Source of the DNA: Nemertoderma westbladi | Lineage: Eukaryota > Animalia > Xenacoelomorpha | Direction: 5' to 3' | DNA length: 64,000 nt | Assembly (NCBI GenBank): GCA_032718475.1 | Contig: JAUCBJ010000055.1 | Coordinates: forward strand, 62,001-126,000 | Shown here: positions 3,436 to 40,566 of the stretch, piece by piece | How positions within the stretch are numbered: the stretch's first letter is position 1 | Layout of the letters: each line of letters opens with the position of its first letter | Made by a program: the position numbers and the translations under genes | Notes under the pieces: generated by a model | What the model was told of the DNA's origin: nothing | The model's input: the letters and a program-made list of their open reading frames with translations, nothing else | Databases searched by the model: none

Positions 3436-3496
3436 GTAATACAATCACCAGCTACCCGCTGGTGATTGTTTTACTAACTGCTAGAAAGAAAGAGAG

Positions 3497-7472: not shown

Positions 7473-7528
7473 GTATTAGAAACCAACAGCCCAAACTGTA
7501 GCTGCCAGCCACCGACCAAAAGACTAAA

Positions 7529-12604: not shown

Positions 12605-13804
12605 TTATCGCTTAGTAGATCGAGCCCTGCCGCGTCCTCGAAAACTGCGCACAGGTGACTTTGCTCGCGATATGGGACTCGTGGGGCGAGTCACTGGTTT
12701 TGCTTGTACGTTGGGAGACGGTGCGACCGTTTCCTCACAAATTCGTCTATTTGGTATCCCAAAACCTCGACCGATTCCTCGTGACCGATCAGTTGTCACT
12801 ACAGTTGGTAAAACGTCTGGCAACGCGCGGAAAGCGGTCGACGCAGACCCAAGAGTAGCTTGCGCCCCCTTTTGATCAGCTGGTGTATGTCCCGATCCTC
12901 CTGTTGGTTCTCTAGGAAGCGATACCGTATCCCGAGTAATTCGAATGGTCGGCTCAACTCCCTTGCGTTCTTCTATATTAATAGACTTCTTTAATTGTTG
13001 GCTCACTTTCTGGACCCTTATGATCCTACCCTGTCCGTCCTCCCGAGGGTGACGTGCAGACGGCGCAACCGGAGTGGCTGGTATATTTGTCGCCTCTAGG
13101 ATCTCCTCTTCCTCAAATACGCTCGCTCGTATACGTTTGTGGTAAAACGCGGCTCGGTATGCCCATGCGACGGTTAACCAAGCTCCCTTATTCCGCTTTT
13201 CAGTTCGGAAACAATCAAATTCACCATACGTGATACGATTCACAACTTTCTGAAAATTCCACGTATTTTTATTGTCCGGGTGAATCTGTAACAGATACTC
13301 GCGCACCACTCTAAATCCACTATCGTGAGGCAAAATGTCGACTACCTCGATAAGTTCGTCATATTGGGGCATAGCGGAGATGTATCCTTCCGACATCATC
13401 GTTTGGGGATTTACCGCCCAAAATCCAAGATGCGCTCTCATCGGAAATCGTCTTCTTTGTGCCGATACGTGTTCGTCGGCTAAATCTTCCCACTCATCGA
13501 ATAGTTTTCTCACGAGTTTTACAGATTCGTGTTCATAAGGTATGTCTCTTAGTTGGCATTCAGATGCTCGATGCCCTTTTATATTGCAATAAGTACATTG
13601 AGCCATAAATCTCCAGCAATTATAAAAGGTATGAGACCCTTGATCTCCACACCATCCACAGATTAGTTGAGTCGTAGTAATGTGCTTTCCACTGCACTTG
13701 GTCAAATGATGTCCAGCGACGCCACATTTACCACACATTGTATTGGCAGGGTACCACACTCGTTCATATATAAGATCTCCAATTGGTCGAGCGCTTCCTC
13801 CCAC
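12605..13804 (-). CDS. Element D accessory ORF, C-terminal part: three CCHC zinc knuckles and a basic RG-rich tail
   Basis: CGKCGVAGHHLTKC, CGWCGDQGSHTFYNC, CTYCNIKGHRASEC. In frame with ORF 13859-16438 across a single TGA. Confidence 0.85.
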   Translation of the reverse strand: MGGSARPIGDLIYERVWYPANTMCGKCGVAGHHLTKCSGKHITTTQLICGWCGDQGSHTFYNCWRFMAQCTYCNIKGHRASECQLRDIPYEHESVKLVRKLFDEWEDLADEHVSAQRRRFPMRAHLGFWAVNPQTMMSEGYISAMPQYDELIEVVDILPHDSGFRVVREYLLQIHPDNKNTWNFQKVVNRITYGEFDCFRTEKRNKGAWLTVAWAYRAAFYHKRIRASVFEEEEILEATNIPATPVAPSARHPREDGQGRIIRVQKVSQQLKKSINIEERKGVEPTIRITRDTVSLPREPTGGSGHTPADQKGAQATLGSASTAFRALPDVLPTVVTTDRSRGIGRGFGIPNRRICEETVAPSPNVQAKPVTRPTSPISRAKSPVRSFRGRGRARSTKR

Positions 13805-13858
13805 ACTATAATCATAATCATCTGGATCTATGGGTTGGTAGGTTTCTGAAGGTTGTAT

Positions 13859-16438
13859 TCAAACTACAGCATCTGTTGCTTCAAGTTGTCGAATCTCCGT
13901 CTGAGATTTCTTCGGGAGGTTCCTTTCTATCTCAAGAAGTTCCTCTAAAGGATCGTCAGTGATCGTAGTCGTTACTTCGAAATCATCACCAAGGTGACCG
14001 ATAGGCGCGCGCGTCTGCCGTGATTCATCCATAACCTCCACGATACGTTCTCCTTCATAGGGTAACAATGTAAACATAGATGGTCTTTCGATAAGAGATC
14101 CCGCACAGCGAAGATACACGTCTCGAAATATACTAAATCCTGCTCGAGTAAAGGCATTACACTGAGCGTCGGAGTTGTAGAAGGGTTCAAGAAATCGTCT
14201 AAACACGTCGGTATGAATTCTCCCTTCCATGTAGAACATATGATCTTCTCCGAGACAAAGTGGATGTCTTTTAAGAGTCCGAGACACAATGTCGGCGATT
14301 AAGCAAACATTCACTGACGACTCTATTGCTAAATAATATTGTAGGACCGCTCTTGGAGGTGACGTAATAGCCCAATACACGCATCCTCTCCATTTGAGCT
14401 GTGATTCAAACTCACTCATATCTGGAGTATCACCTTCTCCATAAGTCTCAATATACTTGGCTCTCTTACTTTCCTTATAATCCCAATTGAATAACAGGTA
14501 GGAAATGTATCCAGTTCCGGTCTTCTGAGTATTATACTCACGAAAATATCCTTGTTCTATAGACCACAAGATAAGAGGTCGAGTGTCGACGTACGGTGTC
14601 GGTAGTCGGTCATCGCTGTCCGTCATGCCGGTGAAGTCGCTAATTAAGTCCTCTCTTACTCCTGATCCAATCTTTACAACAGTTTTATCTAAAATCATAT
14701 TTCTTACCATCTTCGGTAGCATTCTAGCATCGATATTACAAGCTTGGTCCATCTTCTTTACTATGTCAGTGATGAGATGGTGTCGCTTTGTATTTGCTGG
14801 AGGTATCGGCATTCGTTTGTCGCTCCTCTGTCTACTGAAAACGTGCAAGACTCCGTCCGCCGCTCTAATTTGTATAGTCTTAGAAGTCAAACTCTGTTGA
14901 TGACTGCCGCCCTCGTTATCGTAAAACATGTAACCGTTTTCCTGAAACGATCTAAACGTTCTATTCCATTCGTCCAACAATTCTTCCGAAGGTTGCCAAA
15001 TCTTCTCTATGTCCTTATCATCTTCGAAACGAATAACCTTACCTCGCCAATCCGCGGCAATATCTGTATCCGACTCGAAGGTTCCAGTTCCAATCCATAA
15101 ACGAATCGTTCTGGTTAAATATCCTTTCAAATTACTCGGAGCTATATCAGCACCAGCTCTATCCAGTTCCCTAAAGTCTTGAATATGAGGTGGAACGTTA
15201 TACACGACCTTTTGAGTAATATGTCTACGTAAATCATATATCTTACTCATATCGCTAAAAACAACTGCAGGAAGAAACTCCAAGTTTGAAATAATTTCTG
15301 GATGATCCACGATGGGTATTTCGTACGTCGTATCCTGTCGGACTGGTATACTAATAGGAAAATTGAGTGTCGTACTCAATGGTTTCGTAGTCGAAGTACT
15401 ATATGGTTGCATTTCTCTTTTCCTCTCCGGGGATGCAATCTGTAGTCTCTGAATAACATTTTGAGCAAAGTTTATGCTCTCGAAAACTTCCGGTGTCATC
15501 TCCTTAGCTGGAGTTTGATCGTGTGACGTCCAATGGTAAGGTAGGCTCGCGAGTCTTCCGCCCCATTCTTCCATCTCACCTTTCTCAAAAGCCTTGTAGG
15601 CTCTGTATAGGCTAAGAGCTTCTTTCTTTTCGCGGGTTGACTGATTCGCCTCGTCCAGCATAAGTTCAAATGCATCGGGTTCAACAACCTTAGGTGGGTA
15701 AACGACAGTTTCTCCCGCCTTTGGTCCAGTCATAGCAAACGAATGATATGGATTTGATAAAGGATACCCTCCTTCCTGGTAGCGTAGTCGTTGATGGTTC
15801 GAACACCTCGCCAATATCGGTTCGGGATTTTCCTTATTCAAACGCATTGGAATCGCATTTCGTTGTTCGCGCATACAAGAACCGCATTGATAATAAAGTT
15901 TATAAACTGAAAATGCTTCCTTTGTTTCTCTATCGTCCCCTCGAGTTCGTCTGTAAAGGTGCATTCCATCGAATTCATCTCGTACCGCAGGCATAGGTTC
16001 GTGCGCCTTCAGGTATTGCATGGTATGATACAAATGACTAATTTCAGTATCGGGGTCTTCGCTAATGTCTCCCGTATCACACAAAGCGTCGTACGGGTAA
16101 AGTTCATTGAAGGTTTTGCGCAAACTTTCGATTCTTTCATTTAATGCGTTTTGCCTCCTTTTTAATACATTTGAGTCATATTTAGTTCTCGCGAGTTTCG
16201 CAGTACTTTCTGATAATTCCTTTATACCAAATATAGTGTAGTCTTTGGCTCCAAATCTCTCGAATGGCGCTGCTGCTTCCTCTTGGATATCATATCCCCA
16301 TCTCGGCTCTCCATGTATCTCCTTCTCCATAATTAGAGGTGTAGTTACATAATCATTACTACTAGAGGGAATACAACAGAGTTTGTAGTTAGTTGTGAGG
16401 AGACGTGAGAGTTTTCGTCTGCCCTTTTGGCTCGACAA
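13859..16438 (-). CDS. Element D accessory ORF containing a DEDD(y)-type 3'-5' exonuclease domain (WRN/EXD/Mut-7-like); likely ATG at 16330
   Basis: ExoI-like YMFYDNEG (~14909-14935), TIQIR, ExoII-like LDKTVVKIGSGVREDL, YVDTRPL, TGTGYISYLLF, and a possible ExoIII QYYLAIE. The ORF is open for 859 aa. Confidence 0.72.
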   Translation of the reverse strand: MSSQKGRRKLSRLLTTNYKLCCIPSSSNDYVTTPLIMEKEIHGEPRWGYDIQEEAAAPFERFGAKDYTIFGIKELSESTAKLARTKYDSNVLKRRQNALNERIESLRKTFNELYPYDALCDTGDISEDPDTEISHLYHTMQYLKAHEPMPAVRDEFDGMHLYRRTRGDDRETKEAFSVYKLYYQCGSCMREQRNAIPMRLNKENPEPILARCSNHQRLRYQEGGYPLSNPYHSFAMTGPKAGETVVYPPKVVEPDAFELMLDEANQSTREKKEALSLYRAYKAFEKGEMEEWGGRLASLPYHWTSHDQTPAKEMTPEVFESINFAQNVIQRLQIASPERKREMQPYSTSTTKPLSTTLNFPISIPVRQDTTYEIPIVDHPEIISNLEFLPAVVFSDMSKIYDLRRHITQKVVYNVPPHIQDFRELDRAGADIAPSNLKGYLTRTIRLWIGTGTFESDTDIAADWRGKVIRFEDDKDIEKIWQPSEELLDEWNRTFRSFQENGYMFYDNEGGSHQQSLTSKTIQIRAADGVLHVFSRQRSDKRMPIPPANTKRHHLITDIVKKMDQACNIDARMLPKMVRNMILDKTVVKIGSGVREDLISDFTGMTDSDDRLPTPYVDTRPLILWSIEQGYFREYNTQKTGTGYISYLLFNWDYKESKRAKYIETYGEGDTPDMSEFESQLKWRGCVYWAITSPPRAVLQYYLAIESSVNVCLIADIVSRTLKRHPLCLGEDHMFYMEGRIHTDVFRRFLEPFYNSDAQCNAFTRAGFSIFRDVYLRCAGSLIERPSMFTLLPYEGERIVEVMDESRQTRAPIGHLGDDFEVTTTITDDPLEELLEIERNLPKKSQTEIRQLEATDAVV

Positions 16439-16990
16439 CGCTCTAACCTCCTACCCATAGCCTAAGATCTAGGGTTTCTTTAATGACACGCTGCTTCTTA
16501 TCTAAAATTTTTTGCCGAAATAAAAACGAATTTGGGCTAAACTGGCTGTGAGTCTAAAATACTCACCTTTTGATCCCAAACTATTATCAGAAAATAAGCA
16601 GTCAAGAGTTAGTAATAAATATAGGGAAGTCTATTTTGACGTAACTTATTGAAACAAGACCGTGTAAAATTTAATTAAAATTTTTAAGAAAGGCTCGCAA
16701 GTCTTCCTCTCTTGTTTCTCTAATTTTAAGTTCCACCCGACTGTACCCTGAAATCTATTCACTGTAGAAAATTTTAAAATTTTTCAAATCCAAATGGATT
16801 GTCTAAAATTTCGAAAATGTCTCAATATTGTGAGTTCCAAGTAGAATTCCATTTCTTATACCTACAAATCCCGCTCCTATGTGACACATAAGGGTACTAC
16901 CCTCAATGTTCACATATAAAGACAATGGAATTCTACCGCTGTCCTTACTACAGTGTACAGGTACGTGGAAATCTATTTGTAAACTCCTAA

Positions 16991-19900
16991 TTATTTACTA
17001 ATATTAGGTGGAGATTTGTAGTCTCCAGACTCGTTACGAGTCTCTTCAAGAAGTACGAGACGTTGAGTCGGTCTGTCTACTGTACGACCGTCAATTGTCC
17101 GTACCGTCACAGTTCTTGTCACTCCATCCATAGATGGATGTGTGGCTAAAATTACACCTGTTATCCAGAAGCGTCTTTTTAGATTCACTTCCGCTAACAG
17201 CACGTGATCTCCCGGCTTTAATGCGCGGGTGTTATTGTACCATGTTGTTCTGGCAGAAATAGAGGGCAAATAATGGTTTTGCCATATTTCCCAGAATTTG
17301 TTAGCTAGTATTTGTGTGATTTTCCACGCTTTTCTACCGTAGCTATCGCCTTCCATTGGAAAAGAAATAGGCGTCAAAGTAGTCGGTGCCTGCATAAGCA
17401 GGTGTGCCGGTGTCAAAGCAAACTGGGATTGTTTGTCATCGGGTACTAATACTATTGGTCTAGTATTTAGTATTGCCTCGATTTCAACAAACAGTGTTGT
17501 CAGTTGGTCGTCTGTCAAAATGTGGTTTACTGGAATGACCTTTGCCATTGCCGTTTTTATATATCTAATCAATCTCTCCCAGACTCCGCCTCTCCATGGA
17601 CTATCTGGAGGATTAAACTTCCAAACAATCTTGTAAGGACGTAGTTCGTTTGAGATTTGATCATGATCTAATTTCTTAAAGGCTCTAGCAATTTCATTTC
17701 GAGCACCAACAAAGTTTGTACCTTGGTCTGAGTACAAGCATTTCACTAGTCCGCGTCTAGCGATAAATCGCCGCAATGCTAGTATAAACGCGTTGGTGGA
17801 AAGATCCATCACACGTTCAATATGAACTGCCCTACTGGACATACATGTGAAAATCAGTCCCCAGCGTTTTACTAGTATACGTCCACGTTTCGTATGTATG
17901 GGACCAAAGCAATCAATTCCAGTCTCTGTAAAAGGTGGTCTGAATGCTTGAAGTCGTGCTTGTGGAAGTTCACTCATTTCTTGAGTGCCTATTCTAGAAT
18001 GTACCTTTTTACAAATAATACACGTACGTATCACTGAACTTAACGCTTTACTGGGTCTAATTAATACAAATCTTGTACGTAAGTAGGAAAGACAGTGGTG
18101 TCTTCCAGCGTGTTTCAGATGTAAATGTGTGTCCAGTATCATTGCACGTTGTAATTCGTGATGCTGCGGTATTATTATTGGGTATCTAAAGTTTGTGTTA
18201 AAGTCAATGTTTTGAAGCCGAGATTTATGACAAATTAAGCCATTATAAATTATCGGACTCCAACTCAATATTGGTGATGACTTGATTGGTTGACCTTGAT
18301 TTATAGATGTGAATTCGCGTGCGAAATATCGCAGTTGGTAATGGCGAATTAATTTAATTTCACACCTGTCAATCTCAGTCAATGTAAGTCGACGTGTAAA
18401 GTCTCGTTTGCCTTTAACGTATTGTACAAAACGTACAATCCACGCTAATTTTCGGCAAGCATTTGTCCAAGAATCTGTTAAGTTTACAATACGGTCGACG
18501 TAAGTATTTGTGACGTCATCAGGTAAGTCAATGGAGAATTTGGAAGGTTTTGATTTACTAGAAGGGCCCACGGGTCCGCCGGTAGGTATTCCCTTGTTGA
18601 CTGTTGATCCGTCCGGGTCTACAAGTAATTTGTCCTTCTTTGTTTTCTTACCTTGATTGTCAGTACTTTGTAAGTCGATCGTTAATGGTGGTTTGAACTC
18701 TATGGGGTCACTGGGTTTCGGTAAACTTATTTTTCTGCCGATATTAATCCCAGGTCTCACCATAGGTTGCAAGTTTGGTATGTCTCTTGAGCGCAAAGTA
18801 ACACCTGTATTTACATTTACGTAGGTACTACCCACATCTGTAATACATGAGGTTTCACTGTGCTTATGGTTACTCAAGTGTGTCAAATTTGGTAGTTTGT
18901 CAATACAAGGCCGCTCCAATAGGGAAACTGCTGCTTTACTATTTGTCAATAGGTTACTAGTACTAGTGTCTGGTAGAACATTTTGTGACATGTCTGGTAG
19001 AATGTTTCGCGGAACATCCGCCGAAATATCTAGTGACGTGTCTGGCTAAATGTCTGGTTGACCGTCTAGTAACGCGTCTGGTTGACCATCTGGCGATATG
19101 TCTGGTGTAGAAAGGGTCGCAAGTCTTCCGTTCTTGACCTTTGAAGTTATATCTTTCCATTTCGCCTTCGGTTTTTTCTTGAGTTTAGCCGCCGTCCTTT
19201 TCTTTGCTTTCCCTTTCTTTGGTTTTTTAATTTCGGCGTCTTTAGGGATAGCGTTAGACTTGTTGTCGTATAGTGGCGGCCAATGTTGTACTGATCTTTG
19301 CAAGAATTGTGGTCCGTGTTGCCAAAATTCTTTGTTTTCCGGTTTACAGAATTCCTCGGGCATCATTCCTCGCGACGCAATATCAGCTGGATTTTGTGGT
19401 CCGGGACAATGTCGCCAATCTTCCTTTATTGAACGGTCTAGAATTTCTGCGCGACGGTTAGCTACGAATGTCTTGAATTCAAGTGTGTCGTTGTTTATGT
19501 AAAATAAAACCAACGTCACGTCAGTCCAATAAAATATCTGTAAACTTGACTGTAGTTCCGTCTGTATAAGGTTCACGATTGTGGTTGACAGGGTTGCGGC
19601 TTGTAGCTCAGCGCGTGGTGTCGTCATATACTTAGTAGGCATGGTCTTAGCCTTAGAAGTAATGAGCGAAACATCAAACTCTTCTGAGTCTACTTGTCTG
19701 CGCAAGTACGCTGCCACACCAAAGCCGTTGTCACTGGTGTTGGAAAAACAATGTAATTCCAAGTTGTCAGGAAACGTCGTTTGTAATGGAAAGTACACTC
19801 TGGGTATGGAATAATCCTCTAGTGAAGATAATTGTGCCTCCCAGGTTTTCCATAAGTCCACTTGTTCTGATGAGATCGGCTCGTCCCATGTCAGTCCATC

Positions 19901-21967
19901 CTTCCAAATACTGCGCATATAAATTCTGGCTTGCAGTATTATTGGACTGATGAAACCTAATGGATCGAACAATCGACTCAATTTTGATAAGCAGGACCTC
20001 TTTGTCAGAGTGTTTTCTTGAGTGTCCAGTCTCACCTTCACTCGAAAGTTGTCCGTGTTTGGGTCCCAAAAGAGCCCCAACACCTTGGTCGTCGGTAGTG
20101 GTTCGAACTCTAGGTCAATGTCACCACCTCCACGCTCAGTCGTTCCGAATGAGTCTACCAATTCGGCACTGTTTGAGGCGAATTTGGTGAGGTTAAAACC
20201 TCCGCCCGCTAAGCAGTCCCGTAATTGATGTGCTACTGTTATAGCACGTTCTACTGTGTCACAACTCTGTAACCCGTCGTCTACGTAAAAGTCACGTTCT
20301 ACGATCTTGATTATCTCTGGGTCATATATATGTTTCTGATCCCTAGCGGCTTGCTTTAGGGCGTACATCGTACAGTTTGGGCTGTCCCTGGCACCGAAAA
20401 CGCGAACTTGCATTTGGTAAGTCGCCGGTGGTAGACTTAAGTCTCCTTCCGGGTACCAGAGGAACCTCAAACTGTCTCTGTCTCGCTCTAACGCTCGCAC
20501 TTGGTGAAACATAGCTTAGACGTCACAAGTAAAGGCTACTTGACGCTGACGGAAGCGCATAATCACCCCCATAAGATAATTATTCATGTTTGGTCCATCC
20601 ATTAACTCACTATTGAGGGACATTCCCTCAAATAGAGCCGCGCAGTCATTGACTACATGTACTTTGTCTGGTTTGTCGGGGTGTCTCACATAGTGATGTG
20701 GCAAGTAGTATGTCTGGTCAGTCACAATCTCTGGGTTAGTCATTCTGATAGCGTATCCCTTCGTTAAATACATCTCCATCTGAGTATTATACTGCAGATG
20801 GGCTTTCTCGTCCTTTAATAGACGTTGTCGTATTGAGTGTAAACGTCTTAAGGCTAGCGGATAGTTATTTATAAGTTTAGGACGTTGGTTACGCCATAGC
20901 ATCCCTACCTCATAATGTCCGTCTTTCGTCTGGCGGATAGTATCTTCCATGATCTTCAAAGATTGTTTCTCTTGTTCCGACATACATGGTTCGTAGCTAC
21001 CAGGTTCGGCTGTATCTTGTTCTAACCACCTGATAGTCTTCTCCGTTAGTTCTTTGTCCAGTGCAGCTTGTTCCACTTGATGATATCTTAACGCGTCGTC
21101 ATCGATATCGACGGGCATTGTTGAGGTTATTAGTGTAGATAGACTCGCAAGCCTTCCGGCGTTATCATCTGTTGTCGATGGAATCTCTGGCTGACTCGTC
21201 TTCTCCCCAAGTTCTAAACTCACCTGGTGGATTAGCTGCTCCTTGTGACTTATCATACTCGCTACACACGTCGTGTCATGTTTTGTCGAATGTAGTGTAG
21301 TATAGTCTACGTCGTGTGAAAAGGAATGAGTCGAAGTTGTAGTTAATAAACTACATGTACTTTGTATATCGTCTTCCTCGTCACTTATATCCAGTGTGCG
21401 CACAGGCGCTTGAGTATACCACCCTATCGGCGTTCTTCAGGCGTATGCGTTTCCCGCTACGACTGCCGATGGTCTGGTTTCCCACACTTGATGTAGGTTG
21501 AATTGATCTGTCCCGATCAGCATTGCTACCGACCTATAGTTGACAGGACATTCAGGTACACCAAGGTGTCTGAAGTACTTACGGTCCTCCAAGGATTGTT
21601 CTGGGACAGGACCTAGTAGGTTACTAAAGTCCTTTGTGGCCGCAAAGGTTAAATCTTTAAAGGGTAACAAAGACCTCTCCTTTTTGCTATGTTGCGATTT
21701 CGGAAGATGAGTGTCTAAGTTCAACTTAACTCGTGTTACTGGTATTGCACGTTGTCCATGCATACTACTTACGGTGTAACTGACGTTCTTACCTTGTCTA
21801 AGATCCGTGACGACATCAGCTACCTTCTCATCCACGTAACTATGAGATGAGGCTGAATCCAGGATAGCGTAGATCCTTTTGCTCCCTTTGGTGCCAGTAA
21901 TCTTGACAGGAATTATACTAAACCCCTTTAGTTGATCAGGCGTCAGAAGCGCAATCGATGGTTGTTC
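16991..21967 (-). pseudogene. pol: Element D pol (protease, RT, RNase H, integrase) with nonsense mutations at 21437 and 20516 and a frame break near 19000
   Basis: Protease AILDSAS; RT YYLPHH, MFHQV and FYVDD; Pao RNase H LHCFSNTS, TTPRAEL and QNPAD; integrase HAG..CIIC, GIDCFGP, SDQGTNF and GGVWERL. Confidence 0.95.
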
Positions 21968-21972
21968 GTCTC

Positions 21973-22516
21973 TGTTAGCTTATTCAATCCCGCTAACACC
22001 CCATAAAGTTATAAGCCGATAAGCAATATTGGGAGCCACGAGATTGGGTAATTAGCCAACTCGTGCCATCCCAATAAGAATGGGAAGGAAACACACAACG
22101 AGGGTCAGGGGCCAAACCCCTAACCCAGAGAGAATAGGTGGAGTGAACGGGAACACTCCAAAGGGCGCCAACAAGGGTATCAACCAATCAGAGGGGGAAA
22201 GGCATCGATTAGGTAGAGTAACAAGGCCAACCGTGCAATATAGCCACTTGGCAGTAATCATATCAATTCAGTTATCTCAGTGCAATACCGGTGCTAGATT
22301 AGGTTACATAGTTTAGCTAGGGAAGGACCGGGACTTTAGTTACCGTATCCCGCCTTCCGTATACGACAATATTATCTCATATCTATATCTATATCTATAT
22401 CTGCATACCCGAATATTATATACGACAAACAGCACAAACTCATTCACTCTTTATACACGGCGGGGACGCGTGAACTAACAACGGATAAACCGGGATCCCT
22501 CTTGGATCCCGTCACA
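21973..22516 (+). repeat. 5' LTR of element C
   Basis: Direct repeat of 30799-31343. Confidence 0.96.
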
Positions 22517-22588
22517 GTAACTAAACCAGAGCTGCCGCCCTAGCTAACTAGACTCAGCAACCACCAGCCACCAACCTGCAGAAGAGAG

Positions 22589-25500
22589 ATGAGTCGGTCA
22601 GGTGACACGACACCGACGCGGACCCCGGACGAAGAGCTAACGATCCGCGAGGCCGCGACCAGGCGGTATAGGCCCACGACACCGGAGCCATCGATAAGGG
22701 GCGACCCGGAAGTTCAAGATGAGGGGGACCGTCTGGAGTCAGAAGCTGAGTCGAGAGGAGGGGGAATCGAGTTGGAGGATAGAGAGAACGAGCTCGAGGG
22801 TGAAGGAGACGGGTCGACACGGGACAGGGGTCGACGCACCAGTGTCGCCGGCCAGCCACAGGCCGAGGGCGACGAGCGGCCCACCGAAACGGCGACGGTG
22901 GGGCCGACGGTGCGGCGCCGGACGCGGAGAAACGGAGGAGAAATCGGTACCGATGTCGCCGGCCAGCCACAGGCCGAGGGCGACGGACGGCCCACCGGAA
23001 CGGCGACGGTGGGGCCGCCGGTACGACGTCGAACCAGGAGAGACGGACGAGAGGTCGGCGACGAGGACGTCGGGGTTTCTGAGCGACTTCGACGGGCCTA
23101 CAACGCGACCCGGAGACTACTAGAGGAGGCCAGAAAGGGGAAAGCGATAGACGAGAAGGGTTGCCGAGGAACTGTATGACTCATGGCGGCATGGGGGTAT
23201 ACAACCTAGTGTAGTGTACATAGGGCCATATTTAATCGATGCCCGGGGTATAAAATTAGTGGGTTGGAACAGACCTGAGGAGGGCGAATCCGAGGCGGAC
23301 CCCGCGGTTTTGGTCTCGTCGGTCGGAGGGAGTTCCGGGAGGAGGGGGAAAGTTAGTAGATCGGGAAGGCGGAGGGAATCCTTCACAACCGATAAGTCTG
23401 CTACATCCTCCGCGAAAGAAAGACGGGTGAGAGAGATAGTCGCTAGGTACCGTCTCAATCTAGCAGTGCAAGGTAATAGATAAGTAGGTAGACGGCTAGA
23501 GGAAGGGAGAGTGCTGCTAGAGAGGGAAATGGTGTCGATTGGAGAGATAAGAGAGAGGGCCGAAAGGGCCGTGAGGAGCCTTAGGGAGTATGATGAAATA
23601 GAGTTGAAGGAACAAGAGGAGCGTGTGGCGAGAGAGAAAAGCGAACGCGAGAAGCGTGAAGCGAGGGAGGAAAGTGAACGCAGAGAGCGTGAAGCGAGGG
23701 AGGAGAGTGAGCGTAGAGAGCGTGAGGCGAGGCAAAGGGAGGGGATTAGGAGAGAGATGGAATTGGCCGAGCAGAGCGAATGGGAGGCTATGGATAAAAT
23801 AGCAAAAGTGGAGCGTGAGCGGAAAGAATTGGAGAAACAGCGAGACAAACTCGTAGAGTATGAAGCCGTACACACGCGTGAGGTGGAACTGGCGCAGATG
23901 GGGGCGTCTGAGAGCGAGGCTGGCTCGAGTATTTTTGAGGAGCCGGGGGCCGTGGATACATTTATTAATGCCCCACTTGCGGGGACCGCACGACAGACCC
24001 AAGACTGGTGTGACCGTGCTGGCCGGGGGGGGGGGTAATAATGATAATGGTACAGTAGACGTGGTTAATATTAATAGTACCGTATGGGATAATTCTAATC
24101 AATCCTTTATTGCAGGAAATACTTTGCCTAGTGATAGTAATTTAAATTTAAATCAGAACAACCCTAATATTAACGTAGAAAATAATTCTAATATTAATGT
24201 AGCTAGACAAAATAATCAAAATAATCAAAATAATAACCCAAATTCGAACCTACAAAATAATTTAAGTAACGCAATTACACAAAATAATCCAAATAATTTA
24301 AATAATGATCCGAGCCCGAATTTACAAAATAATTCAGATAGTGTAGTCGCGCAAAGTAATTCAAATGATTTTATTTCGAACGAACAAATTAATTCCGTTT
24401 CCAATATGAGTGCTATTAACGTAAACACGTCGGGCGTGTATAGCCAGACAGACGGGGGCCTGGTAGGCCACGTAGTTGGTAGGCAGGGAGTGGCTGGGTT
24501 AGGTAGACCCAGTGAGGGCCTGGTAGGTCACGTAGTTGGTAGGCAGGGAGTGGCTGGGTTGAATAGACCCAGCGAGGGCCTGGTAGGCCACACAGTTGGT
24601 AGGCAGGGAGTAGCTGGGTTAGGTAGACCCAGCGAGGGCCTGGTAGGCCACGTAGTTGGTAGGCAGGGAGTGGCTGGGTTGAATAGACCCAGCGAGGGCC
24701 TGGTAGGCCACATAGTTGGTTTGGCAGGGAGTAGAGGGCCTGGTAGGCCACGCAATAGCAGAGGGAGAGGCGGGGGTGAATAGACCCGACCGTGGTAGGG
24801 TTGATGTGTCGACTGGAGAGGGATATAGTAGAGGGGTGAGGAGTAGCGAAGTTAGATGTGGCGAGTGGGGGGGGGGGGGGGGGCTACGAGAACCCCACAA
24901 CAGCGAGTTAGCGGCGAAAGGGGGGGGCAGAGAGTGTCCCACAGCCGTCAGCGGATAATGCGCGGACCGAAATAGGTAAACCGCAACAACCGGCGACGGA
25001 AAGTAATAGGGGGATTGCGAGTATCCCCAGCGGCGTGCGACCGAGCAGAGAGAGACAGGTTGACATCGTAAGAGGGCGGACGAAGCGTCGAGCCCGATCA
25101 GAAGAGGGAAGAAGAACAGTGGGGTTTAACCGGGAGGTCGACGAGAGATCTCACGAGCGGGAATACTCCACTGAAAGGAGAAGAAGAGAAGACAGTAGTA
25201 GAGGTATCGCCGCGAACGATAGAAGAGCGAGGACGGATAGCGAGCCGTCGGTAGTTGAGATGAGAACGGAGAGTCAGTGGGGTCGGACTCCGGGAGATTG
25301 CCGTCGCCCCGGAGAGATGCGACCCGGCGAGGCGCACTACGCGCCGATGGAGGGGTACGCGATGTACCGGTACAAAGACGAGAACAGTAGAGGGGGGGGT
25401 CGAAGAGAAACTTTCCGACGGAATACACCTATCGATCGAGAATACGGTAGCCGCGGGGAGGATTATTCGAGAAGAATAAACTTCGATCCCGAGCGACACA

Positions 25501-25808
25501 TGCAGACTGTAGGACATACTGTAGGCCTTACTGCACATACCATAGGCCATACTGAGAGAGGCAATGTAGGCGATAGGATGGCGTGGACAACGGGATTAAA
25601 CCCGGAAGTCGCGGAATACATACCGGCGAGTAGGCCAGAAGCTGATAGGCCTATACCGGTACCAGCACTGCAGTATGACTACAGCATGCAGGGACATAAC
25701 ATATACCCAGGGGAGGGGGGAATTATTGCGGATAGGTGTATGGGCCCCAACATATTAACATCAACCCCAGTACCAAACATACCGGTGGGGGGGGGGGGGA
25801 CAGGGTGA
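22589..25808 (+). pseudogene. gag: Element C gag N-terminal region, broken by stops and poly-G frameshifts
   Basis: Homologous to the gag starts of A and B, with a coiled-coil, an Asn-rich tract and 60-bp repeats at 24455-24750. Confidence 0.78.
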
Positions 25809-25866
25809 CATTCCCCCATCACAATATCAACAATATACCCCGATAGGAGCAAGAACAACGAGACCC

Positions 25867-28503
25867 TTGGATGAGAATAGGTCGTGTGATACAGAAATAT
25901 GGAGGGGGCCGCTACCCCCGATGACATACCCAAGTCAGAGAAAGTCAAGAAATAGGACGGACGAGCCGCACCAGACAGGAGAAACTATGCAGCACCCATC
26001 GAATCCATTGGAAGCGCAGGCGATGGGGATGGCCACGTTGATCGATGCGTTGAAAACGAGGATCGAGTTACCACCCGTGGAACCATTCAAATTCGATGGG
26101 AGCAGGCCGGAAGAATATCTACAGTTTCGGCGCATGTATAGTAACGAAATACTAACAAAGAACTTGACGCAGGCGGAGTGCCTAAAGTATCTGCAAGTAT
26201 ACACGGGAGGCCCAGCATACGACATCGTGAGGCAATATCAAGGAATAGAGGGCGGCTTCACGACAGCATGGAGGGCACTGGATAGGGAATACGGGCACCC
26301 GGCCAAGATCATCAGACAGACACTGAGAGGCATAACATCGGGTGGCCTACAGGATAATCCCGTTAGCATTAAGACGTTTGCTAACAAAGTCGAAAAGGCG
26401 CTGATCGTGCTGAAGACGCTAGACGCGCCATACGAGCTCAATGCGTCCAATAACATCACCACGATAGCGCAGGCACTACCGAGTTGGATGCGCAACAAGT
26501 GGAGGAAAATTGCTTTCTCCACTCGAGAAAAGAAGGGTGCGGAACCGGGTTTAGAAGAAATGTCAAACTTCTTAAACTACGAGGCTGAGATAATAACTGA
26601 CCCAGTCTACAGCGAAGATAGCCTGGGAAAGGGACCGAAGACGGATTACCATAGACCGAAACCAGAGCACAATACATCAAACGCATTACCGAGGCTCAGG
26701 CAATCATTGCCATATGCAGCGACGCAGGGGACTGCAAGTCCACAGCTAGCCGAAGATGAGACAACACCATGGAACGGACAGGGGAACAATAACAGCACGA
26801 ATAAACATAACCCCAGTACGTCCAGTAGGCTGAATCCAAACAATAAGAATAGTAGGGACTTTGGTACGAACGCAACTGCGATACGCAATGCGCTGTATAA
26901 AGAGGGCTACGACCCAAAGAGCAAATGCCAGCTACATGCAAATGCGCTTCATCAAACCATGAACTGCAGGTACTGGCAGGCGCTACCTAGGCAAGATCAG
27001 ATAGATTATGCGTTGAGCAATAATATCTGCTCGCGATGTGTAATGAGTGGACATAGAGCAAGGGAGTGCAAGGAGAAGCCGATAAAATTTGGTCAGAGAA
27101 GAGGCCAAACGATGGCGACGAGCACAGTAGGAGCGAAGAAGAGAGGAACGGTGCTACTTGGAGTAGTACCCGTGCGAGTGATTGGGGAAGGCAATCGATC
27201 AGTAACAACGCTAATGCTGGTTGATAGTGGAGCTGCCTTCACATTAGTTGAGGAATGGGTGGCCGAAGAGATAGGATTGAGAACGAGGCCAAGCAGAATG
27301 GCGGTAACAACCATATCTAGCAAAGATGAGATCCTGGAGATGAGAACAGGAAGGTGCGCAATTGCAGCAGTGGCACCAGGATGCGACTATGGGGCAACCA
27401 TCGACCCCATCCAAGTGATAGAGTCAATTAATATCAATGCCAGGCGGCCAACCAACATCGAGGTCAAGCAGTATAAATTTCTGGACGACATTGACTTCTC
27501 AATCCCAGACGTGGACGTTAGGAAGGTATCCATCATAGTAGGGATGGACTGCCCAACGGCCCACGAAAGAATGCAAACGGTCTTCGGCGAAGACAAGCAG
27601 TGTGACCCGGTGGCGATATTAACACCATTCGGGTGGACACTGACAGGCCCAATTAAGAGTAATATACCATTCCATGCGTCTGAGAGTTCAGGATGCATGG
27701 TGCCAGGAACTGTCGATGAGATAGAGGAGAGGCCAGAGATGGGCAATAGTGGTAGACAGCTAGAAGTGGAAGCAACACCACGAGAGTGGGCGGAGGAGAA
27801 TGGCATGGATGCAGAAGATCTAGAGACGATGGGTTGGAACAAGAGTCCCAGCAAGAATCGGTATGGAGATGGAGAGGAGCGGACGGCAAAATGTCCGGGG
27901 GACAGGCCGGAGGAGTGTCCGGAAGAGATGCCGGTCCGGTTGGGAGGCATGCCGACAAGGGGGAGGCCGAGCAGGAGGACTAAATGGAAAGGGAGAAGAC
28001 TTGAGACGATCAGACCAGGGGCAGAGAAGCCAGTGGGTGGGCGTGTGATGGACAAAGGATCCGGGAAAGTAGGAGGCGTGCTGCATACGCACGCGGGACT
28101 GACAGAGTGTGAGGGGGCATTACATGGGCAGAGACCGTGTATACCGAAGGACGAACGGGGGTCGTCGAGGCCTTTAATGCCAGCACACATATTAAGGGGG
28201 AGGCCAGCAGAGGTGGCATCTAAGATTAAGGAGAAGAACAGGGGCGGCATTATACCGCCGGGTGACACGTTGAAGGGTGGCACTTTGCCGCCAAGGGACG
28301 ACCACGAGATCAGAAACATAAATAGCAGACAGCATTTCCAAAAACAGGAGAAAAGACCACCTATCGAATTGACAAGGAGAGCGGAGCGAAGAATTAGAGA
28401 ACCTATAGGGGGGCAGTGGGAGAGTTGCCTGCTGGAGGAATCACCCCTTGGGTCGCTGAGTTGTCCAAAAGGTTGGACTGGGATGGAAGAGTTAGATCCG
28501 TAA
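25867..28503 (+). CDS. gag: Element C gag core, zinc knuckles and aspartic protease, fused to scrambled pol remnants
   Basis: PFKFDGS..EYLQF (BEL gag core), CQLH..H..NC, CSRCVMSGHRAREC, MLVDSGA, TPFGW. No YVDD motif. Confidence 0.88.
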   Translation: MDENRSCDTEIWRGPLPPMTYPSQRKSRNRTDEPHQTGETMQHPSNPLEAQAMGMATLIDALKTRIELPPVEPFKFDGSRPEEYLQFRRMYSNEILTKNLTQAECLKYLQVYTGGPAYDIVRQYQGIEGGFTTAWRALDREYGHPAKIIRQTLRGITSGGLQDNPVSIKTFANKVEKALIVLKTLDAPYELNASNNITTIAQALPSWMRNKWRKIAFSTREKKGAEPGLEEMSNFLNYEAEIITDPVYSEDSLGKGPKTDYHRPKPEHNTSNALPRLRQSLPYAATQGTASPQLAEDETTPWNGQGNNNSTNKHNPSTSSRLNPNNKNSRDFGTNATAIRNALYKEGYDPKSKCQLHANALHQTMNCRYWQALPRQDQIDYALSNNICSRCVMSGHRARECKEKPIKFGQRRGQTMATSTVGAKKRGTVLLGVVPVRVIGEGNRSVTTLMLVDSGAAFTLVEEWVAEEIGLRTRPSRMAVTTISSKDEILEMRTGRCAIAAVAPGCDYGATIDPIQVIESININARRPTNIEVKQYKFLDDIDFSIPDVDVRKVSIIVGMDCPTAHERMQTVFGEDKQCDPVAILTPFGWTLTGPIKSNIPFHASESSGCMVPGTVDEIEERPEMGNSGRQLEVEATPREWAEENGMDAEDLETMGWNKSPSKNRYGDGEERTAKCPGDRPEECPEEMPVRLGGMPTRGRPSRRTKWKGRRLETIRPGAEKPVGGRVMDKGSGKVGGVLHTHAGLTECEGALHGQRPCIPKDERGSSRPLMPAHILRGRPAEVASKIKEKNRGGIIPPGDTLKGGTLPPRDDHEIRNINSRQHFQKQEKRPPIELTRRAERRIREPIGGQWESCLLEESPLGSLSCPKGWTGMEELDP

Positions 28504-28704
28504 AAGGTGCGGGCAGAAGTGTTACCTGTCTGCTAGAAGGAGCACCTTAACTTGGAGTTAGAGTAGAGTTTAGTCGTCCAAGATTTGGACTGAGGGGGGT
28601 GGGATTGAGGGCGAGACGCCCTTCCCACACAAATAAAATAAAAATAAAATAAAAATAATAAGTACACAGTAGGTACGCAGTTAGTAGGCAGAAGTTAGTT
28701 AAGA

Positions 28705-29240
28705 GGTACGTAATACCTAGTTAGTTAGTTAGATAGGAGGTACGTAGTACCGATAGTTAGTTAGAGAGTTAGAGGGTACGTAAGTACCGATAGTTAGTTA
28801 GAGAGTTAGAGGGTACGTAAGTACCGCTAGTTAGTTAGAGAGTTAGAGGGTACGTAAGTACCGCTAGTTAGTTAGAGAGTTAGAGGGTACGTAAGTACCG
28901 TTAGTTAGTTAGAGAGTTAGAGGGTACGTAAGTACCGTTAGTTAGTTAGAGAGTTAGAGGGTACGTAGTACCGTTAGAGAAGAGTTAGAGTTAGGGTACG
29001 TAGTACCGTTAGTTAGAGAAGAGTTAGAGGGTACGTAGTACCGTTAGTTAGAGGAGAGTTAGAGGGTACGTAGTACCATTAGAGAAGAGTTAGAGTTAGG
29101 GTACGTAGTACCGTTAGTTAGAGAAGAGTTAGAGGGTACGTAGTACCGTTAGTTAGAGGAGAGTTAGAGGGTACGTAGTACCGTTAGTTAGAGAAGAGTT
29201 AGAGTTAGAGGGTACGTAGTACCGTTAGTTAGAGAGAGAG
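28705..29240 (+). repeat. Tandem array (~30-35-bp unit with palindromic core GGTACGTAGTACC) in C
   Basis: About 15 copies by eye. The homologous array lies at 34100-34580 (-) in B. Confidence 0.92.
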
Positions 29241-29548
29241 AGTAAGAGGTAGAAGGGTATATAAGATATAGATATTAGTTAGCAGTTAGTAGCGTTAGTA
29301 GCGAGAGGAGGGCATATGAGTACAGCTGGGTAAATTGTGTGGCCACACGACGCACACTGCTGTACTGCATAGGCCCACAGAGTAGGCCAGAATGTGGATT
29401 AGGGAATAGAATAATCAATAGGAAGCAGTAAGGTAGTAGGATTGAAATTAAATCAAAAATAAAATTAGAATAAGAATAGGGCTAAGAAGGGGAACAAATT
29501 ATGGTAACAGTAGTAAGAATAGGCAATAACTCAGAAATTCAGAAAGAG

Positions 29549-30089
29549 ATAGGCCATCGAACTGAACTTAAACCACCTAAGCCCATCACTCATCACGTTT
29601 GCGCCTTGGCAAGGCACCACCTACAGGTGAGCGATCGGGCAGAGTTCGAGATGGCAGGTAAACTTGTGAGAGAGAAGAGAAGCAGAGGAGAGGGAGGAGG
29701 AAGCTAGGGCGCAGAGCTACGGCTTTGAGGAATAAGCAGCCTTAGACGAACTTCGTTGGGCTTCGTCAGGGAGTTCGGGGGAGTCTCTAGGGAAAGAACT
29801 GGGGTGGACGGTGGGATCACCGAAACAGTCGACGTCGGGATTGCAAGCAATGAAGATGATCTTATGGGACGCCACCAGAGGGAGACAACCGGGCCACTCT
29901 GAGGGGCCACCTGCGAAACGGTATCGGGCACTAATAACACCAGCGCCCAAGGAGCCAACAACCGGAATCAGCAGGGAGGTGGCGGCGAGAGTCCGAAAGC
30001 AGAAAGCGGATCCCAGAGGAGCGGTGGTGACCAAGAAACGACCCAGGGAAGAGGACGCCAGGGGGAACTATCCTCAGAGGAACAGATAG
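29549..30089 (+). pseudogene. Internally deleted remnant of the accessory ORF in C
   Basis: CALARHHL matches the B ORF 33387-33716. It then jumps to sequence matching B ~45690-45850 and ~46810-47040. Confidence 0.75.
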
Positions 30090-30798
30090 GTTCCCAGGGC
30101 CGGGGGAGAGAAACTGGGACTTGGACGTGGTACGCCTGGAAGGCGCCGCGTGGGACGTACGAACTATTAAGTACAAATCTAATTAATGCAAATAATCACA
30201 TAAGTGCAATTTGTATGTACGTACGTAGTGATTAGTAATCTAGAATATATACGCTCGAAGTAAGTACTATAGTCATACAACCTTTCTCAATTAGCTACTG
30301 GGACTGGGGGGTAAACTGACTATGGCACTATGGACGAGACACCAGACAATTTCACACTTCTTGAGTGCGACGGCACGAGAGGGGGGGAGATTTGTCAGAA
30401 GAGATGAGGTAGTCAGAGTGGGATTGAGGGACGGAGTAATGGAGCGAAGTGCAGAGGGAGTGCGGACGCAATTCTAGTGTGTGGGGGAGGAGAATAAGAG
30501 GCTGAGTGAGGGACGAGGAGGTCCGAGTGTATGAGAGTGTTAGGATGAGAGTGAAGAAGAGATAGGGCGGAAGTGTTGGGGAAACAAAAGTTGCGTGAGA
30601 GGTGAGCGCGATCGGCCCGACATGAGACGCCAGGCACACAGGGTAGCGTTATCATACCCATAGGGGGTGGCCTGGAAAGCCGGCTCCGAGAGAAAAGAAT
30701 TCCACCCCACACCCGATACTAGATCGGGATCCAGCGGGATTGTAGCGCACTTTTTGGTTGATGCTATCTTCTTACCGGGAAGATAGCATGGGGGGGAG

Positions 30799-31343
30799 TG
30801 TTAGCTTATTCAATCCCGCTAACACCACATAAAGTTATAAGCCGATAAGCAATATTGGGAGCCACGAGATTGGGTAATTAGCCAACTCGTGCCATCCCAA
30901 TAAGAATGGGAAGGAAACACACAACGAGGGTCAGGGGCCAAACCCCTAACCCAGAGAGAATAGGTGGAGTGAACGAGAACACTCCAAAGGGCGCCAACAA
31001 GGGTATCAACCAATCAGAGGGGGGAAAGGCATCGATTAGGTAGAGTAACAAGGCCAACCGTGCAATATAGCCACTTGGCAGTAATCATATCAATTCAGTT
31101 ATCTCAGTGCAATACCGGTGCTAGATTAGGTTACATAGTTTAGCTAGGGAAGGACCAGGACTTTAGTTACCGTATCCCGCCTTCCGTATACGACAATATT
31201 ATCTCATATCTATATCTATATCTATATCTGCATACCCGAATATTATATACGACAAACAGCACAAACTCATTCACTCTTTATACACGGCGGGGATGCGTGA
31301 ACTAACAACGGATAAACCGGGATCCCTCTTGGATCCCGTCACA
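30799..31343 (+). repeat. 3' LTR of element C
   Basis: Follows the hairpin and PPT; followed by TSD GTCTC. Confidence 0.96.
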
Positions 31344-31348
31344 GTCTC

Positions 31349-33390
31349 CAGTATCAAAGTAAACGTCGTCGTCTTCCGACTCTTCATCCGACGATCCTGA
31401 TTGTTCTGAGAAGCAATCTCTAATGTGCGTCACGAAGGTCGGTGTTATTTTCGACTCTCGACCCTTATATGCTGTGTTGCATCTTGCTGCCGCTTCCGGG
31501 TGTTCCCTGGTGAAGCGTTTGGTCGGCGTATGACTGTTTGTGTGGAGCAAACCGTCATGGTTGCGTCCACAGGAAGGACAGGTGTCTGTATTTGGGCAGT
31601 CTTTACGGATATGTCCATGTAGCGTACACCGCCAACAAGAGTCCAATGGCCGTATTTGCAGTCGTCGTTCCTCTGAATTCAATTCGCGGAATAGTCGACA
31701 TCCTCTTAGTTTATGGCTAGTATGTCGTTTACCTAGCCGTTCGCAATATTGGCAACCGCTAAAGTCTGTGCTCAGTTGCTGTCGGGTCTGTTTGGTTCCA
31801 ATCGGTGCGGATACCTTATTACCGTCCGAAAATTGTTGGGTGTCGGTCGACGTGGCGTAAGTGGCCGTCTTGGTGGATGTTGTTTGGGGTTTTTGTCGGT
31901 TCGAGGATGGTAAGGTTGTTCCTTCCGCCACAATATGTTGGTCCGTGTAGTTCGAACGCGTCTCGACTACTGCCTCTCTAGATATCAGTAAGTAGACGTC
32001 TTCCAACTTCAAGAATCCGCCTCTCTCTTCTCGCTGATATTCTATCTTTCGCCACTCCCGACGAAGTCGATGGTGTAATCTTCCTATTATTTTCAATAGG
32101 ACTGTCGGAGTGTTCGCGTAGTCAAGTTGTCCAATCGAGCGTAGTGTAGTAATGGCGTTCTTAATCTCGTCAGCTAATTTCAGTAAGTCAACGGGTTTTG
32201 TTATAGCCCCCCCTTACAGAGTTCTTCTATCACTGACTTAGCCATGCTTACGGTGCCTCCGTAAATCGAAGTTAAGCGATCGTACGCTAGTTCGAAGGCG
32301 TCTGGTACACCGACAAAGGTCTCCGCTAGACGTTTCGGTTCTCCCGTCAGCGTTTGTAGCAGGTAGTTGAATTTCTCCCTCGATGTAAAGGCGCACGCTG
32401 CTATTTGGGTTTCGATGTAGTCCACAAAGGTGTGCCAATGTTTCGAGTTACCGGAAAACTTAGGTAGTTGTTGCACCAGTAATCCTTGTCTGGCTGCGAA
32501 TTTCGCTATCTCCTCGGCCACGTTCAAAGTTTCGCGTCCTTCGTTGGCAATCGAGTTGATGTTTTCTCGTCTTGGCACTTTTCCTTGATACGAGGTGTTT
32601 CTCGAGGGTTGTTTTCTTTGCTGCTTCGGGTGTCTAGAGTGTTCGAACTCGGTACCTCGCGAACTATCAGTTTGAGTTTCCTCTAAACGTTCCTCTATCT
32701 GGGCCAACTTGTCTACAACTGGGCGCATTATTTCGGCGAGTTGTTGCATACTAATTGCGTCCGTTGGTTGTAACGCCTTCTGTGTTGGTGTATTTTGTGG
32801 AGGATTATCGATAAAGGAGTTATCTGAACGCTCACCTTTATATTCGTCGGCCGCTCCTGTTCTAAATACCTCACGTTTCGGGTAATCCGATTCACTCGAA
32901 GTACTACTGTCACCTGGATACGGTGGTCGACGTGCTCGCGTCCGTTGTGCTGTCTGAATCCTAACATTCCGTTTTGGAACATCGTCTACTGGGTTCCGTC
33001 GTTCGGTAGGCTCGCAAGTCTTCCTCGAAGTCGTAGATTGCGATGTAAACTGATTAAACGGTCGCGTATCCACTGGTCTCCGTTGTTCGGTAGGCTCGCA
33101 AGTCTTCCTCGAAGTCGTAGATTGCGATGTAAACTGATTAAACGGTTGCGTATCCACTGGTCTCCGTTGTTCGGTAGGCTCGCAGGTCTTCCTCGAAGTC
33201 GTAGATTGCGATGTAAACTGAACCGGTGGTTGAATGACAGCATTTGAATCTAAAGGCCTTGTAGGCCTAAACGTCATTGGGTACGTGTAATGCATAACGG
33301 GTTTTGGCGTCGAAGGTGGACTCACCTGTTTAGTCGTTAGTAGTGCAGGTCCTGTCAACAAACTACTACGATCTGTAATCGGTGGGTTAC
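31349..33390 (-). pseudogene. gag: Element D gag, 3' portion (core and BEL zinc knuckles)
   Basis: LPKFSGNSKHWHTF..EKFNYL; CQYC..H..C, CWRCTLHGHIRKDC, CPSCGRNHDGLLH; three 84-bp repeats at ~32985-33230. Confidence 0.9.
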
Positions 33391-33716
33391 TTACCTTGAC
33401 TTTCAGAATGGGTGATGACGTTGCTCTTGGCGGTGTAAACTTGTCCCCGCTGTTTGTGCACCTCCCTGAAATGGTCTTGTAGCGCTCGCGCTCCGTGACC
33501 TCTCTCTAATTGCTCGTAGTATCCCCTCGTCTTCTCTTCCGGATGCCTCTTGGTGAAATCCACCAGTATCTCCTTTCCTCCTAACTCCGCCTTTCTCTTC
33601 CTGATCAGTTTTCCCACCATTCCGAACTCTCTCACTCGCTCACCTGTAAGGTGGTGCCTTGCCAAGGCGCAGTACAGATGAGTGATAAGTTTAAGATGGT
33701 CTGTGCAGTTCGACAA
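33391..33716 (-). pseudogene. N-terminus of the element B accessory ORF, cut by the inversion breakpoint
   Basis: Lies after B pol and the tandem array, matches C at 29549, and joins 44823 via GTAA. Confidence 0.7.
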
Positions 33717-34580: not shown

Positions 34581-34731
34581 ACTAACTTCCATCTGCCTAC
34601 TTACTCTTTCTTTATTTTATTTATTATTTTTATTATTTTTATGTGTGGGAAGGGCGTCTCGCCCTCAATCCCACCCCCCTCAGTCCAAAACTTGGACGAC
34701 TAAACACCACTAAACTTCACTCTAATTCAAC

Positions 34732-40434: not shown

Positions 40435-40566
40435 CACTTATAGAATTATATTCTCTAAACGCCGTGGATTTTCAAAATTTTATTTTATTCGAATTAACTT
40501 TGTTAAAAGATTACATTAAGTCCTCATTTGTATTACTATATCTATTTGTACGATGATTATTCAAGT

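Follow-up and report, generated by a model that had tools for sequence, protein, structure and literature searches.

The window analysed here is a stretch of 64,000 nucleotides of Nemertoderma westbladi (Xenacoelomorpha) DNA, taken from positions 62,001 to 126,000 of contig JAUCBJ010000055.1 (GenBank assembly GCA_032718475.1), and coordinates below are positions within it. Animal transposons are nested within one another in this window: a BEL/Pao long terminal repeat (LTR) retrotransposon, element C, lies on the minus strand inside element B and is itself split by element A. Between its integrase and its 3' LTR, element C carries an extra open reading frame (ORF), here called ORF3, whose product is predicted to contain a 3'-5' exonuclease domain of DnaQ-like type followed by three CCHC zinc knuckles. 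ORF3 is a real, selected, lineage-level cargo gene.

Element C and its extra reading frame

The pol gene of element C (16991..21979, minus strand) encodes protease, reverse transcriptase (RT), RNase H and integrase in a single frame with three stops, and Pfam analysis of it detected PF05380 (E=3.4e-41), PF18701 (E=3.6e-21) and PF17921 (E=1.6e-4). The C-terminal portion of the gag gene was located at 31346..33450 (minus strand, breakpoint approximate), with PF03564 in the gag piece 33505-32204 (E=7.4e-8). By PF05380, PF18701, PF03564 and the order protease, RT, RNase H and integrase, element C is a member of BEL/Pao. The 3' LTR (9912-11760, minus strand) is 1,849 bp long, has the termini TAT...ATA and lies next to the target site duplication ACACT; the 5' LTR (40439-42432, plus strand, being inverted in the window) contains a 200-bp insertion and a 54-bp deletion and is preceded by ACACT. 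The two LTRs share 1787 matches with 7 mismatches (99.6% identity), and their outer flanks are the 5-bp duplication ACACT. Because this single duplication bounds the outer sides, the 1.85-kb repeat is the LTR pair of element C. That it forms an element of its own, or a set of terminal inverted repeats, was considered and rejected, since one inversion also explains the arrangement of both B and C. The TAT...ATA ends stand in place of TG...CA despite the clean 5-bp target duplication.

An inversion of about 11 kb, or a misassembly, at about 33450-44850 interrupts the gag of element C and the extra ORF of element B. The inverted segment carries the 5' LTR and the probable start of gag; its breakpoints, near 33.45 and 44.85 kb, are approximate, and a misassembly would look alike. 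The probable N-terminal part of gag (43276..44850, plus strand, breakpoint approximate) was assigned from its place after the 5' LTR inside the inverted segment, and Pfam gave no match in it. By coordinates, element C is about 18.6 kb long with LTRs of 1.85 kb, whereas the ICTV Semotivirus profile gives genomes of 4.2-10 kb, LTRs of 0.2-1.2 kb, a primer site of 18 nt that pairs with tRNA-Arg or tRNA-Gly and, before the 3' LTR, a polypurine tract about 10 nt long (PMC8742986). Element C lies outside this description in genome size, LTR size and tRNA primer site, and just a short purine-rich end, ATGGAGCGG, precedes its 3' LTR. A tRNA-like segment with the look of RNA polymerase III A and B boxes, possibly the head of a short interspersed element, was observed in the LTR at about 11560-11640 (minus strand) and in the matching part of the 5' LTR; neither ARAGORN nor Rfam called it.

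ORF3 extends from Met to stop over 12605..16330 (minus strand, 1,241 codons in one frame) and lies between the integrase, which ends at 16991, and the 3' LTR, that is, in the env position. The original prediction had placed long ORFs at 12605..16438. Two ORFs are indeed found there, 16450-13859 (863 amino acids between stops, with its first Met at 16330) and, directly after it, 13858-12605 (417 amino acids), but they form a single frame split by one in-frame stop at 13859-13861, and the start is the Met at 16330 and not 16438. Other copies were studied through public contigs. These belong to four runs (X1, X3, X4 and X5) that come from four studies, and one of the runs may be the source of the assembly. 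The codon at 13859-13861 is a sense codon in most of these contigs (79% of depth in X1 and 100% in X3, X4 and X5); therefore nuclease and knuckles form one protein of about 1,240 amino acids in the family, and programmed read-through of the stop was rejected. With three stops in pol and one in ORF3, the present copy of element C is dead.

The expectation that the gene would occupy the env position with no transmembrane or env features was borne out, as neither the transmembrane anchor nor the furin site of an env glycoprotein was found in the ORF3 product (best hydropathy window 1.38 on the Kyte-Doolittle scale over 19 amino acids; no RxK/RR site). The spacer between pol and ORF3 (16331..16990, minus strand) contains splice-like signals in a consensus scan, namely TACTAAC at 16614-16608, AG at 16581, GTGAGT at 16566-16561 and another acceptor-like site near 16362. 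Among the rows listed (12 of 37), frameshifting indels of other copies at 16337, 16412 and 16415 all fall upstream of Met 16330, and none was listed at 20% share in 13810-14960 in the public-contig comparison. The N-terminal part of ORF3 (14987..16330, minus strand, about 450 amino acids) could be assigned to no family, with no Pfam match below E=0.18 and no HMMER match; a CxxC...CxxH motif was noticed in it by eye. The three knuckles (13556..13735, minus strand) begin at 13735, 13660 and 13597 and have the forms CX2CX4HX4C, CX2CX4HX5C and CX2CX4HX4C, of which Pfam zf-CCHC matched only the third (E=0.024). Their origin by duplication from Gag is unlikely, because their spacing, compared by eye, differs from that of the Gag knuckles of element C. 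No separate repeat was found bounding ORF3.

Predicted exonuclease domain, its copies and a homologue in a second family

The predicted exonuclease domain covers amino acids from about 490 to 727 (14270..14986, minus strand), is unbroken in this copy and appears DnaQ-like, closest to WRN, EXD2 and Mut-7. The motifs FYDNEG (amino acid 509, nt 14926), KIGSGVREDL (amino acid 593) and VDTRPL (amino acid 621), together with the three knuckles, are present where the original prediction had put them. Four weaker, largely independent lines point toward the same superfamily. In the Atlas, 24 of 30 matches belonged to the PF01612 set at 0.92, the top match being an unnamed cluster, and NCBIfam placed DnaQ epsilon on the ExoI stretch (E=0.024, far under its cut-off). 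When hidden Markov model profiles were built from three enlarged sets of DEDDy proteins, ORF3 ranked first among the 1113 six-frame segments of the window with each of them (E 0.15, 0.013 and 0.27). In hhalign, WRN-like and pooled profiles gave E=2-4e-4 with a match centred on ExoII, a score reached by none of 30 shuffles; RNase D (E 0.045), NrnC (0.57) and PolA (0.66) were all worse than WRN-like in a reference set that holds few or no animal EXD2 or Mut-7 rows.

The alignment A4 set the domain against 53 reference rows, to which it has 11-20% identity, and there D511, E513, D601, Y706 and E710 line up with the columns for D, E, D, Y and D; D511, E513 and D601 fell in catalytic columns in both trial alignments. 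An AlphaFold model computed with A4, and hence with 53 borrowed DEDDy rows as input, reached a predicted local distance difference test score (pLDDT) of 70.6 and a predicted template modelling score of 0.67. VIA-align matched the model to diDNase (Z 13.5, root-mean-square deviation (rmsd) 3.3, 165 aligned) and WRN (Z 12.2, rmsd 3.2, 171 aligned), and further to EXD1 (Z 11.9), Nibbler, RNase D, the Trypanosoma brucei RNase D TbRND and Egalitarian (Z 10.3). EXD1, Nibbler, RNase D and TbRND lie within about 3 Z units of the top, and the Z values are tied across subfamilies. All nine Foldseek matches at E up to 0.001 were EXD2 chains with poor superposition (template modelling score about 0.33). 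Several lines thus agree, each weak alone, and a DnaQ-like fold of the domain is highly probable.

Several results weigh against the exonuclease reading. Pfam found no exonuclease match in ORF3 at E up to 10, the Atlas shared-feature count was 168, slightly below the usual 170, ORF3 came first with none of five small bacterial profiles, and the hhalign probability was 35-46% over 46-65 columns. One of two MAFFT runs put ExoIII elsewhere, about 20 residues earlier. Because the alignment was borrowed, the fold match is partly circular and indicates compatibility, not independent proof; the single-sequence model had a pLDDT of 31 and no usable fold. ExoIII of ORF3 reads YLAIE, a YxxxE form whose E stands at a position occupied by D in 52 of the 53 reference rows, and in ExoI an invariant G is replaced by F. 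The corresponding piece of element B, described below, did not match WRN profiles above chance when used alone (4-5 of 15 shuffles as good). The acidic motif is accordingly D-E-D-E, with DxE of ExoI and D of ExoII in place and no YxxxD at ExoIII: a variant, not canonical DEDDy; we found no literature on the effect of D-to-E at ExoIII. The WRN/EXD2/Mut-7-like reading of ExoI and ExoII proposed originally is therefore retained in part, with DnaQ-like support and WRN-like as the best profile; its fold evidence is weak or borrowed, ExoIII has E and not D, and VDTRPL is the conserved strand after ExoII, not a catalytic motif. Lack of a DnaQ-like fold, named with it as a refutation, was not borne out, the fold being compatible with that type.

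Element C is one copy of a multi-copy family. Contigs matching pol and ORF3 numbered 11972 in X1, 5111 in X3, 444 in X4 and 52 in X5; they covered 30 of 30 bins of pol plus ORF3 in X1, X3 and X4 and 28 in X5. No single listed contig joins the end of pol to the start of ORF3, the pieces overlapping. The differences at a share of at least 20% in 13810-14960 were considered, 40 of 45 being listed. In the core (amino acids 500-720), synonymous changes make up 24 of the 29 differences listed, where the same spectrum would give an expectation of 32% (p=3e-8), and in the linker after the core only 3 of 10. As a count on contigs and not a formal ratio of nonsynonymous to synonymous rates, this reveals strong purifying selection on the ORF3 core. 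None of the listed differences changes an amino acid at the five candidate catalytic residues, in agreement with the conservation check set out beforehand. Over whole ORF3 the picture is less favourable, with 7 synonymous among the 20 best-supported differences (8 of 19 in pol); these are mostly near-fixed, and we take them for decay confined to the dead copy at hand.

A broken homologue of ORF3 was identified in element B at 44901..46940 (plus strand), its start lying at 33620 (minus strand) across the inversion. It shows GYMILDDEG (45015), a deletion and a frameshift, then KRYILQED (45368) and three knuckles (46357, 46430 and 46490). The pol proteins of B and C share 33-37% identity in their best blocks. 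Between the two homologues the ExoI region was matched by none of 1000 shuffles as well, the ExoIII region by 171 of 1000, and the knuckle region gave a blastp E=9e-5; whole-ORF blastp of ORF3 of C against the middle piece of B gave E=0.74, and global hhalign produced no alignment. ExoIII of B is YILQE, so that YxxxE is found in both. Because a second, divergent BEL/Pao family has a homologue in the same layout, ORF3 is regarded as cargo of a lineage, and from the shared order and YxxxE form the gene either predates the split of the B and C families or moved between them. The strong purifying selection on its core and its occurrence in two deeply diverged families argue that ORF3 is useful to the element.

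Searches for further relatives were negative. HMMER with an 823-amino-acid part of ORF3 gave no match at E up to 0.001 over 1.84 billion representative proteins, and word-index searches at 474-1511 and 141-450 amino acids found none; neither did any of 59 candidates among metagenome contigs prove related, nor was a relative present in PDB sequences, plasmids and phages, or PHROGs.

Related systems, priming and candidate roles

The rotifer elements Juno and Vesta are of Ty3/gypsy type. As the original prediction had noted for bdelloid retroelements, DEDDy ORFs are on record there: ORF3s of this kind have been published for these LTR retrotransposons and for Terminons (texts of PMC5408684, Rodriguez et al. 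2017, and of PMC6431247). Like ORF3 of element C, the Juno and Vesta genes occupy the env position and have a putative DnaQ-like 3'-5' exonuclease as product, with no transmembrane features and an altered acidic motif (PMC5408684). Compared by description, the rotifer motif is DEED, against D-E-D-E here, and the rotifer ORF3s are reported in that text with no significant departure from neutrality, in contrast to the purifying selection on the present core. Element C further differs in its BEL/Pao host, 1,241 codons and three C-terminal knuckles; the word BEL is absent from the main text of PMC5408684. Nuclease cargo in the env position was already known from rotifers; the present case stands out by its new host superfamily, BEL/Pao, as well as by its array of knuckles, its altered active site and the priming signature presented below. 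The finding extends such cargo, whose role in retrotransposons was left open in 2017 by the report on rotifers with no clear selection seen, to another LTR superfamily.

No published BEL/Pao element with a DEDD/DnaQ exonuclease was found in a literature search that left Repbase, most subscription journals and the supplements of PMC3118150 outside. Neither the BEL/Pao survey PMC3118150 nor PMC13524379 nor PMC12440569 uses the word exonuclease in its main text, and PMC6338049 cites, in its text, the rotifer case only. A third gene before the 3' LTR is common to element C and to BEL/Pao elements with an env-like ORF, such as roo F-type elements and those with mosquito chuvirus-like glycoproteins (texts of PMC8742986 and PMC13524379); those carry a glycoprotein, whereas element C has a predicted enzyme, about twice the listed element and LTR sizes and no tRNA primer site. 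A transposon-borne DEDDy exonuclease also occurs in Dada DNA transposons, where, according to the text of PMC3706591, the domain lies within the DDE transposase, is canonical DEDD and is proposed to process DNA ends. Among host enzymes, WRN, EXD2, Mut-7/Nibbler and EXD1 resemble ORF3 in the best profile match, the ExoI DxE, the IQI strand, ExoII of the form KxGxGV..D and fold Z of 11-12, but ORF3 has 11-20% identity, insertions of about 25 and 20 amino acids and YxxxE. In TbRND (PDB 7c42; Z 10.7, rmsd 4.0, 182 aligned) a DEDDy exonuclease likewise precedes a zinc-finger array, and the fingers raise RNA binding and cleavage, as stated in the text of PMC7797062. TbRND is, however, a host enzyme with four fingers near the nuclease, whereas ORF3 has three knuckles about 180 amino acids downstream, a long N-terminal region, a transposon context and a profile that prefers WRN-like over RNase D. 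No host donor gene for ORF3 was identified.

A tRNA-type TGG primer site is absent after all four BEL/Pao 5' LTRs examined, those of A, B, C and a further element, D. Instead, the first 9-10 leader bases are complementary to a site inside the element's own LTR: 9 of 9 in B (7254 with 7473-7481), 9 of 9 in A (22335 with 22517-22525), 9 of 10 in D (3224 with 3436-3445) and 10 of 10 in the 3' LTR of C (LTR position 821 with 42434-42443). The sites in A, B and D all lie 362-366 bases into the LTR and show compensatory changes. Shuffled sequences paired as well in 14 of 2000 cases for B, 9 of 2000 for A and 6 of 1000 for the 3' LTR of C; exact matching in D was not above chance (503 of 1000), and the site in the 5' LTR of C is cut by the deletion (109 of 1000). 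This complementarity, read from sequence alone, resembles the self-priming of Tf1, whose primer site is complementary to the first bases of its own transcript (texts of PMC7175516 and PMC6317226). A hairpin (CGGGAT...ATCCCG) with differing loops was also observed at the LTR 3' end in B (7455-7472), A (22497-22516) and D (3410-3435).

With regard to function, the interpretation we tentatively prefer, short of calling it probable, is that the ORF3 product is an RNA exonuclease that shortens or breaks down those silencing RNAs which the host directs against the element. ORF3 would be expressed from a spliced env-type message, and its predicted 3'-5' exonuclease of WRN/EXD2/Mut-7-like type, joined to the three CCHC knuckles, could catalyse with D-E-D-E as metal ligands; the knuckles may grip RNA in single-stranded form as the nuclease works back from its 3' end, in the manner of TbRND, the substrate presumably being small RNAs or their precursors. 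The RNA-binding knuckle array suggests a defined substrate, and the compact domain is suited to assay. A host-facing job would fit a separate accessory gene that recurs in rotifer LTR elements, Terminons and Dada, and would fit better than a single replication step, because elements that replicate in unlike ways have DEDDy cargo in common (texts of PMC5408684 and PMC3706591). If true, ORF3 would represent a transposon-encoded counter-defence nuclease. Relatives of Mut-7/Nibbler promote silencing and do not block it, which counts against counter-silencing; the same silencing-promoting role is raised in the text of PMC5408684.

Somewhat unlikely, though it gains a circumstantial hook from the priming signature, is that the enzyme serves replication of the element itself, its knuckles bringing it into the particle, where it would cut back the self-primer's 3' end, or that of some other RNA, until it is flush with the LTR boundary. 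All four 5' LTRs lack a tRNA-type site and their leaders pair with their own LTR, and enzymes of the RNase D type shorten the 3' overhangs that structured RNAs carry (text of PMC7797062); if so, an enzyme would be added to the LTR replication cycle. On the other hand, Tf1 self-primes with RNase H alone (text of PMC7175516), ORF3 is not fused to Gag or Pol, and exact matching in D, and in the 5' LTR of C with its deletion, does not rise above chance.

An RNA-binding fold of weak or lost catalysis, similar to EXD1, Egalitarian or Maelstrom and serving to escort, localise or shield element RNA, is an unlikely reading of the domain. The D-to-E change at ExoIII in both C and B, the F for G in ExoI and the fold matches to EXD1 and Egalitarian would suit such a protein, but the four positions are all still acidic, the ExoIII tyrosine is retained, DxE and YxxxE are common to two families with 33-37% pol identity, and the motif of the rotifer cargo varies as well (DEED; text of PMC5408684). 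Quite unlikely is the bolder proposal of an undescribed clade of giant self-priming BEL/Pao elements that replaced both tRNA primer and env gene, in which a D-E-D-E exonuclease with nucleocapsid-like knuckles would mature the self-primer as the fourth enzyme of LTR-retrotransposon replication.

Proofreading or end-trimming of complementary DNA for RT and integrase, permitting a larger genome, is improbable, RT proofreading being the least favoured of the three functions suggested originally. At about 18.6 kb, element C indeed exceeds the 4.2-10 kb of the ICTV profile (PMC8742986), DNA is acted on by WRN-type enzymes and the termini are non-canonical; yet PolA proofreading domains formed the worst-scoring subfamily, element B has the same cargo with ordinary TG...CA ends, and the cargo and long LTRs make up much of the extra size. 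That the exonuclease likeness is due to chance, or that ORF3 is a passenger of no use to the element, whether a nested insertion of unrelated origin or a fragment captured from the host, is most improbable: the lack of significant matches in Pfam, PDB sequences, the representative proteins and metagenome contigs, and of a listed contig covering both the pol end and the ORF3 start, would allow it, but four largely independent methods agree on the superfamily, selection is confined to the predicted domain, the arrangement recurs in a second family and no separate repeat surrounds ORF3.

Neighbouring mobile elements

Element A (21973..31345, plus strand), nested in C, is a deleted BEL/Pao derivative of the B family; its LTRs share 542 matches with 4 mismatches, and the flank GTCTC is duplicated. 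Tandem arrays of 35-44-bp units were noted between pol and the extra-ORF region of elements A and B, at 28680-29260 and 34050-34590. A small insertion of 186 bp occurs twice in the window with 99% identity, at 2607-2792 and at 40716-40901, the latter inside the 5' LTR of element C. Other mobile elements recognised by eye include a THAP/P-element-like transposase, RTE-like and CR1/L2-like long interspersed elements and a Gypsy integrase found twice; the regions concerned are 58905-61385, 49393-53024 and 342-1865 on the minus strand and 56365-57507 on the plus strand.

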